This document shows, in pieces, positions 12,786 to 13,003 of a stretch of DNA of 37,205 nt; the stretch's first letter is position 1; every line of letters starts with the position of its first letter. The translations under genes and the position numbers were made by a program. The notes below the pieces were generated by a model. It searched no databases. It was not told where the DNA came from and saw nothing but the letters and a program-made list of their open reading frames with translations. The stretch lies in the sequence record PP925823.1, one strand, 5' to 3'. Origin of the DNA: Escherichia phage LMessi.

Positions 12786-13003
12786 ATGCACTTAAAATGC
12801 ACTTGAGGCATTTCAAAAAACAGAAATCATTAATATTCAATAGGTTAATCATTATTCGGACACGGGTTCAACTCCCGCCAGCTCCACCACTTTTGATAGG
12901 ACTGCAACCGGACAGCGGCAATAAAAACAGCCACTTACGGACACTGACCAGACAGTGCGCAGACCGAGAAAAGACAAAAATATGCACGTGAAATGCACGT
13001 GCA
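12786..13003. repeat. paired direct repeats flanking the att core (candidate integrase arm-type sites)
   Basis: ATGCACTT x2 at 12786-12793 and 12797-12804; ATGCACGTG x2 at 12982-12990 and 12993-13001; both pairs are spaced 11 bp and sit on either side of the tmRNA-derived core. Confidence 0.4.
12855..12889 (+). other. attP core: copy of the 3' end of tmRNA (ssrA), T-arm and acceptor end through CCA
   Basis: TTCGGACACGGGTTCAACTCCCGCCAGCTCCACCA matches the canonical enterobacterial tmRNA 3' terminus (as I recall the E. coli sequence) with one mismatch; the upstream sequence is integrase coding DNA, so the rest of ssrA is absent. Confidence 0.7.

Follow-up and report, generated by a model that had tools for sequence, protein, structure and literature searches.

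The region immediately downstream of the integrase gene of Escherichia phage LMessi very probably serves as attP for a temperate siphophage of HK97-like type, whose host is Escherichia or a close relative; it is borne on what reads as an unintegrated and circularly permuted genome. The window analyzed here is the complete stretch of 37,205 nt (Escherichia phage LMessi, PP925823.1), and all coordinates refer to it. The region follows the lambda paradigm in its architecture, with a tmRNA gene as target, and close relatives have already been described. The elements listed in the first-pass annotation, comprising a copy of the ssrA 3' end between two pairs of direct repeats, with the integrase gene on one side and a dinI-like and a tail-fibre gene on the other, were all found where it had placed them (Table 1).

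Table 1. Features of the LMessi attP region and neighbouring genes, with coordinates in the 37,205-nt window.
Feature	Position	Strand	Evidence and remarks
xis, 69 aa	11394..11603	+	PHROG 2917 'excisionase', E=2.1e-40; overlaps int start
Tyrosine integrase gene (int), 390 aa	11558..12730	+	Read towards the att core
Three GGAC repeats	12754-12780	+	11-12 bp spacing; just upstream of P1; speculative Xis sites
P-arm pair P1/P2, ATGCACTT x2	12786-12793, 12797-12804	+	Putative arm-type integrase sites
IHF-like site ATTCAATAGGTTA	12835-12847	+	8/9 specified positions of WATCAANNNNTTR; candidate
ssrA 3'-end copy TTCGGACACGGGTTCAACTCCCGCCAGCTCCACCA	12855-12889	+	34/35 vs E. coli ssrA
P'-arm pair P'1/P'2, ATGCACGTG x2	12982-12990, 12993-13001	+	Putative arm-type integrase sites
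Overlapping third P' copy GTGCACTT	12999-13006	+	Putative arm-type site
Strong G+C hairpin and U-run	13013..13043	+	Intrinsic-terminator-like; downstream of int in attP
Two LexA-box-like sites TACTGTTTATTTTTACAGTA, TACTGTATACAAACACAGTG	13100..13143	+	TACTG-N10-CAGTA, TACTG-N10-CAGTG; read from sequence; before dinI
DinI-family gene	13161..13427	+	Pfam DinI, E=2.5e-22; first gene on the P' side
Tail-fibre gene	13468..14853	-	Pfam Phage_tail_C_2, E=2.1e-29; starts the late structural block
TerS	about 33743-34228	-	PHROG 5601; late block runs up to terminase

The ssrA core and its junctions in lysogens

The 3' end of ssrA is a well-known integration hotspot. In LMessi, a gap of 125 nt separates the integrase stop at 12730 from the ssrA 3'-end copy, which had been put at 35 nt and which matches E. 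coli ssrA, as it ends in the CP-1639 record (...TTCGGACGCGGGTTCAACTCCCGCCAGCTCCACCA), at all but one position. The sole mismatch falls at 12862, where the T-stem begins and the phage has A in place of G; over its final 26 nt (12864-12889) the copy does not differ from E. coli ssrA, and these nucleotides make up an identity block common to the whole phage family. The copy spans a T-stem, T-loop and T-stem (CGGG-TTCAACT-CCCG, 12863-12877) and reads 5'-...CCACCA-3' on the plus strand, the orientation that rebuilds ssrA at attL; in lysogens, the annotated full-length ssrA ends in this same core, beyond which the P' arm begins. The possibility that the window contains a tmRNA gene, full or partial, was considered and rejected, with neither ARAGORN nor Rfam at its gathering threshold identifying a tmRNA or tRNA gene there and with the last 35 nt alone being present.

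The two halves of the region can each be followed into integrated prophages. On the attL side, CP-1639, whose database record includes the ssrA integration site, E. coli 25-07338 and the Stx2f prophage of 2015C-4136CT1 all show the order smpB-ssrA-[P' arm]-dinI-tail genes, and many E. coli chromosomes likewise continue from ssrA straight into the P' arm, with a dinI gene and tail genes after it. The P' arms of the three named lysogens are 85-93% identical to the window from 12890 onward, ATGCACGTG repeats included. On the attR side, the IMG/VR contig UViG_2872102953_000003 is 99.1% identical to the window over 11255-12889, which takes in xis, int, P arm and core, and switches exactly after CCACCA to the native sequence found downstream of ssrA in E. 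coli, with a CP4-57-like integrase gene; its other end, an attL, matches the window from 12855 on. IMG/VR holds 490 relatives of the integrase, the best 80 of these 490 being at 90-100% amino acid identity, and dozens of prophages with integrases in that identity range end in P arm, core and ssrA-downstream E. coli DNA. Because the homologies stop at 12889 on one side and start at 12855 on the other, the window corresponds to the left half of a real attR joined to the right half of a real attL, with a 35-nt overlap of ssrA. Furthermore, the map of the Stx2f prophage (ssrA-dinI-cdt-tail-head-terminase-HNH-lysis-stx-Q-replication-repressor-xis-int-core) is the gene order of the window opened at att. 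These boundaries, together with the phage genes on both sides of the core, agree with the earlier designation of the site as attP and not attL or attR, and the prediction of integration into ssrA fits both types of junction seen in lysogens, four prophage contigs providing both ends. Assignment of the window to attL or attR was itself rejected, given the phage genes that flank the core on either side and the lack of host DNA.

In many IMG/VR loci, an LMessi-type P arm is followed by a sequence beginning 'ctttttagttg...' that ends in a terminator-like hairpin and recurs after many unrelated P arms. This sequence was read as the probable native ssrA-downstream DNA of another host; an attP assignment for these loci was rejected and they are taken as attR. 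The attP-like or tandem junctions are limited to loci that continue downstream into 'cttttgatagg...ATGCAC'.

The prophage junctions also delimit the crossover. In the four contigs that supply both ends, attL always carries the host sequence gcGGG, and in three of the four attR carries phage-specific core bases (acGGG, gcAAG and gcGAG), at positions 12862, 12864 and 12865, just 5' of the T-loop. Because attR keeps these phage-borne mismatches while attL is of host type, the crossover is placed 3' of 12866 and 5' of the end of CCACCA, in TTCAACTCCCGCCAGCTCCACCA (12867-12889 in the window), which limits the recombining segment to 23 nt or less. The 7-nt T-loop, TTCAACT, which lies between the inverted T-stem halves CGGG and CCCG, is the likeliest candidate for an overlap region with core-type sites, an exact position that is proposed from the arrangement of the core. 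A crossover in the T-loop matches the general picture of integrases that target tRNA-like genes.

Given the one mismatch to E. coli ssrA, the fragment and its repeats could be taken for a chance match or for a relic without function, with the actual attachment site of the phage elsewhere. Position 12862 is located, however, outside the mapped crossover segment, and the mismatch is carried by integrated prophages that are 99% identical. This reading is also contradicted by the lysogen junctions of integrases with 90-100% identity, and the repeat pattern described below is 200-fold above chance, so that next to no credence is left to it.

Putative arm-type repeats, hairpins and a proposed model of integration

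Both direct-repeat pairs of the first-pass annotation are present on the plus strand with the reported spacing of 11 bp, measured start to start, and the P' arm contains in addition the overlapping third copy GTGCACTT, which had been missed. P1 and P2 lie 78 and 67 nt upstream of the 26-nt core, and the P' pair starts 93 nt downstream of it. The pattern ATGCAC-N5-ATGCAC has exactly two matches on both strands of the 37,205 nt, against 0.01 expected (a 200-fold excess), and none of 100 shuffles reached two; the bare ATGCAC hexamer is not enriched (21 found, 25 expected). In a comparison of 62 loci encoding relatives of the integrase, which yielded 52 distinct P arms, the block ATGCACnnAAAATGCAC is near-invariant at -78/-67, while the 40 nt up to the core vary freely. 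On the other side, the P' pair was found in every complete relative examined, so that the repeats do recur in the att regions of related phages, as seen in the attL or attP of CP-1639, the Stx2f prophage, phiES15, DX6 and IMG/VR contigs. The entire P' arm (~165 bp) is ~90% conserved among relatives, however, and for this reason conservation of the P' repeats is, taken alone, unspecific evidence.

The protein presumed to read these repeats has the domain composition of an arm-binding integrase. The int start was set at a GTG at 11558 behind GGAGG by analogy with relatives of 390 aa, and the product combines a full-length N-terminal Arm-DNA-bind_2 domain (Pfam PF12167, E=7.2e-20, 1-65/65) with a catalytic Phage_integrase domain (PF00589, E=3.6e-17, residues 231-399 of the ORF). 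The earlier description of the layout as arm-type is consistent with this domain and with the position of the P pair, kept in the 52 distinct relatives, and the repeats thus look like arm-type sites to which the integrase would bind. Other candidate sites accompany them in the P arm. The IHF-like site is preceded by an A/T-rich tract and coincides with a TTCAA-N4-TTA element conserved at about -29..-17 across the 52 distinct, divergent P arms. The GGAC motifs recur at the same place in divergent P arms, where the alignment columns are well conserved, and their role as excisionase sites is speculative.

The P' repeat pair is also self-complementary. GCACGTG and CACGTGC are reverse complements and form a hairpin at 12983-13003 with a 9-bp stem and a 5-nt loop, which is followed on the minus strand by the T-run ATTTTTGTCTTTTCT; the P-arm pair cannot form a hairpin (z about -2). 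The self-complementarity of the P' pair, with a minus-strand T-run behind the stem, together with a conservation that extends over the whole P' arm and does not single out the repeats, would suit a model in which the downstream ATGCACGTG pair is primarily a minus-strand terminator, stopping late or antisense read-through into attP and int, and only the upstream pair is arm-type. Yet the P-arm pair, which lacks the hairpin, presents the same hexamer with the same 11-bp spacing on the same strand, the P' position of a sister integrase lineage (see below) holds a motif of its own, GGATACGC/GGAGCCGC, that matches the motif in its P arm, and a stronger hairpin stands directly beside the P' pair, at 13013-13043. 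On balance, a primary terminator role for the P' pair appears unlikely, and the roles of terminator and arm site are not exclusive. The stronger hairpin, for which RNA folding of 12960-13060 gives z=-4.3, is conserved in the attL of lysogens. There the 3' end of ssrA precedes it by 124 nt, and if it functions as the terminator that its sequence suggests, it would terminate ssrA transcription.

With the P' pair read as arm-type sites, the elements of the region can be arranged in a model of integration. The phage copy of the last 35 nt of ssrA would permit insertion without breaking the host gene. The heterobivalent integrase encoded at 11558-12730 would use its catalytic and core-binding domains on the core and its N-terminal arm-binding domain on the ATGCAC(T/G)T repeats of P (12786-12804) and P' (12982-13006), with DNA bending probably helped by IHF at the candidate site at ~12835-12847. 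Strand exchange with ssrA would occur within TTCAACTCCCGCCAGCTCCACCA and would generate the integrated order ssrA(5' part)+core+P'+dinI+tail...head...cos...lysis...replication...xis+int+P+core+host DNA, leaving ssrA intact and furnished with a phage-supplied terminator. Excision would require the excisionase encoded next to int, a protein that shares 97% identity with the one annotated as excisionase in Cronobacter phage phiES15.

Topology of the genome and neighbouring genes

Several observations point to a window that closes on itself. In the records of mEp390 and HK542, two phages with cos ends, the first base corresponds to window position ~34228, and cos, between the HNH gene (34624-34977) and TerS (33743-34228), must therefore be internal to the window. 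The last bases of the window, ...GATGGAGGTTTT (37186-37205), supply GGAGG-TTTT for the ATG at base 1, which opens a 125-aa ORF (1-378, PHROG 12178, unknown function), and since the ribosome-binding site of this ORF is found at the far end of the window, both ends are taken to be neighbours. SaltyDalty is collinear across these ends, with its glycosyltransferase cluster matching 35536-37101 and its Rz/endolysin region 391-746, and holds a swapped-in moron of similar size between those matches. The whole window is, moreover, collinear with HK97-like phages, its structural block being 91-96% identical to those of the HK97-like coliphages mEp390, HK542, ECP1 and CharmingMan, and it contains one genome equivalent, with no internal duplication. 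Ribosome-binding site continuity, synteny with SaltyDalty and the internal cos site all argue for circularity; the record has the appearance of a circular contig that was linearised at the start of a gene, and the window is best read as one complete unintegrated genome of 37.2 kb, circularly permuted, with cos and att internal. The internal cos and the adjoining ends lend further weight to the attP assignment. In exact-match searches, a 50-mer over P arm and core had no counterpart in genome contigs and, among viral contigs, matched a related prophage only; a 32-mer across the join of window end and start was absent from viral contigs, a 1.2-kb segment over that join gave partial hits only in E. 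coli genomes, PLSDB plasmids contained nothing close, and no identical protein was found for ORF1, DinI or the tail fibre.

A homotypic tandem junction looks locally identical to attP, and the window might in principle have been cut from a chromosome in which tandem prophages, the same or of the same integrase type, occupy ssrA, the int-core-dinI segment then being an internal attR/attL hybrid. One such junction exists in E. coli DX6, where int-core-dinI is 87% identical to the window and the same TerL and DUF2213 accessions appear on both sides, and heterotypic arrays at ssrA are common, as in E. coli WAT and loci L164, L166 and L122. Against this origin, the window comprises exactly one genome equivalent and no duplicated segment, its two arms carry the same motif, its last bases complete the start of the base-1 gene and a related phage is collinear across its ends; self-closure would not be expected of a window derived from an array. 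A chromosomal origin is hence considered improbable, and a single circularly permuted phage genome is the reading adopted here.

Arrays and related replicons at this locus also merit description in their own right. The DX6 locus (NZ_CP126345.1, 1-40794; L005) contains the same myovirus-like prophage twice in tandem, the copies being separated by an attP-like int-core-dinI junction; many of its genes are flagged as frameshifted, and an artefact of long-read assembly is possible. The heterotypic tandem arrays at ssrA, in E. coli WAT (NZ_CP012380.1, 175-48837; L212) and in the three loci named above, are ordered as an ATGCAC-type phage, a second lambdoid prophage and a further integrase gene, and a CP4-57/P4-like integrase was read in the third place of the array in one locus only (L010). 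The second prophage of WAT has a GAGCCGC-like repeat word in both arms, and hybrid junctions of the form P(GGAGCCG)-core-P'(ATGCAC) are present in IMG/VR contigs. A Klebsiella pneumoniae replicon of 41,452 bp filed as a non-mobilizable plasmid (NZ_CP118695.1; H101) has an int-attP arrangement 84% identical to that of LMessi, in which int and attP are separated by two additional genes, just as in phiES15, and is probably a circularised phage genome and not a plasmid.

On the P' side, dinI adjoins ssrA in lysogens and occupies the same place in CP-1639, the Stx2f prophage and other E. coli lysogens. The two LexA-box-like sites before it suggest SOS-regulated expression of a phage DinI beside attP. 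Two further features were observed elsewhere in the window. An exact 22-nt direct repeat, AAAAAAGCCACCCGAAGGTGGC, hairpin-forming and terminator-like, occurs at 19790-19811 and 20446-20467 and brackets a 199-aa ORF (19831-20430, minus strand) without a Pfam hit, located between a J-like gene and tail assembly genes; together, ORF and repeats resemble a moron cassette that brings its own terminators. The segment 34962-36991 (minus strand), flanked by the lysis region and HNH/cos, encodes two proteins, one of 485 aa that matches glycosyltransferase-2 weakly and one of 196 aa assigned to PHROG 854 'glucosyltransferase'. This pair is possibly a serotype-conversion or DNA-modification moron, common to ECP1, SaltyDalty and ENT39118.

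Comparison with known systems and a sister integrase lineage

The reference point for this architecture is the attP of phage lambda, known from the work of Landy, in which arm sites P1 and P2 and P'1-P'3 flank the core COC' together with IHF and Xis sites. Like lambda, LMessi encodes a heterobivalent tyrosine integrase with an N-terminal arm-binding domain and has a short core flanked by direct repeats, putative arm-type sites in LMessi, two in P and two or three in P'. In both phages int is read towards the core, with xis over its start and the tail-fibre end opposite, and a hairpin lies beyond the LMessi core just as tI/sib does in lambda. The two systems differ in their targets, attB being intergenic between gal and bio in lambda, with an identity block of 15, whereas LMessi matches the ssrA 3' end over 26-35 nt, and in their arms, for which LMessi presents the motif ATGCAC(T/G)T and an integrase with a Pfam Arm-DNA-bind_2 domain and not one of the lambda-type family.

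Closer relatives have the same integrase family (85% nucleotide identity to phiES15, 88% amino acid identity to the Stx2f prophage integrase). The annotated 26-nt attP of phiES15 is identical to window positions 12864-12889. Both phiES15 and the CP-1639/Stx2f group share the 26-nt core with LMessi, have P' arms ~85-90% identical to that of LMessi, repeats included, and carry a P-arm pair at the LMessi distance from the core. The arrangement of phiES15 differs by two extra genes between int and attP, and the CP-1639 and Stx2f phages differ in having been seen integrated and in their stx or cdt cargo, whereas LMessi has an HK97-like structural module and no toxin genes were seen in it. ssrA is listed among Stx-phage integration sites in published papers, and for the lambdoid coliphage LLS an attP has been deduced from a 29-bp identity to the ssrA 3' end (PMC12315714, Genome Res 2025). 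PhiR12, with an integrase gene 84% identical to that of LMessi at the nucleotide level, has ATGCACgtaaaATGCAC in its P arm. The backbones of LLS and PhiR12 differ from that of LMessi, and the passage of the LLS study dealing with attP does not take up arm sites (PMC12315714). Elements of the CP4-57/P4 type use the same host gene and are often in tandem with the LMessi family of phages, but they belong to an unrelated, P4-type integrase lineage, with int immediately downstream of ssrA and read away from it. The LLS study reports the CP4-57/P4-type integrase to be only 17% identical to its own ssrA-targeting phage integrase, LLS Int (PMC12315714).

The publications consulted do not appear to characterise the specific arm motif found here for this family of integrases, a detail within a known kind. 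The sole mildly novel thread is an apparent switch of the arm-site word between two sister integrases that have core and geometry in common. In E. coli WAT, the integrase of the second ssrA prophage is 69% identical to that of LMessi and uses the same core. The P arm of this prophage shows TATCCGC/GAGCCGT at about -78 (TATCCGCaaaaGAGCCGT) and its P' arm GGATACGC/GGAGCCGC at about +93 (GGATACGCaaaGGAGCCGC). The motif has thus changed in both arms together while the geometry has been kept, as arm-type sites predict, and on the nature of the repeats this comparison is the most informative one. It is tentatively suggested, as a reading that falls somewhat short of even odds, that sister lineages at 69% integrase identity have retained the same ssrA core and pairs of sites near -78/-67 and +93/+104 while the arm word itself was swapped, ATGCAC(T/G)T in one against GA(G/T)(C/A)CGC in the other, and that the P' sites may also serve as a minus-strand terminator.

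No concept is changed by the attP of LMessi. For phage annotation, the analysis yields an attP, bounds for the crossover, candidate arm, IHF and Xis sites and a predicted attB in ssrA. These can be used in calling prophage boundaries at ssrA, a crowded hotspot that also hosts Stx and Cdt phages, and the integrase and its att site form a pair that might serve as a tool, for users of which the annotation would be of help. If the arm-binding domains of the two sister integrases are truly orthogonal, they would constitute a natural pair for dissecting the evolution of arm specificity under a fixed core specificity, and different lambdoid prophages could stack in tandem at ssrA without cross-excision.
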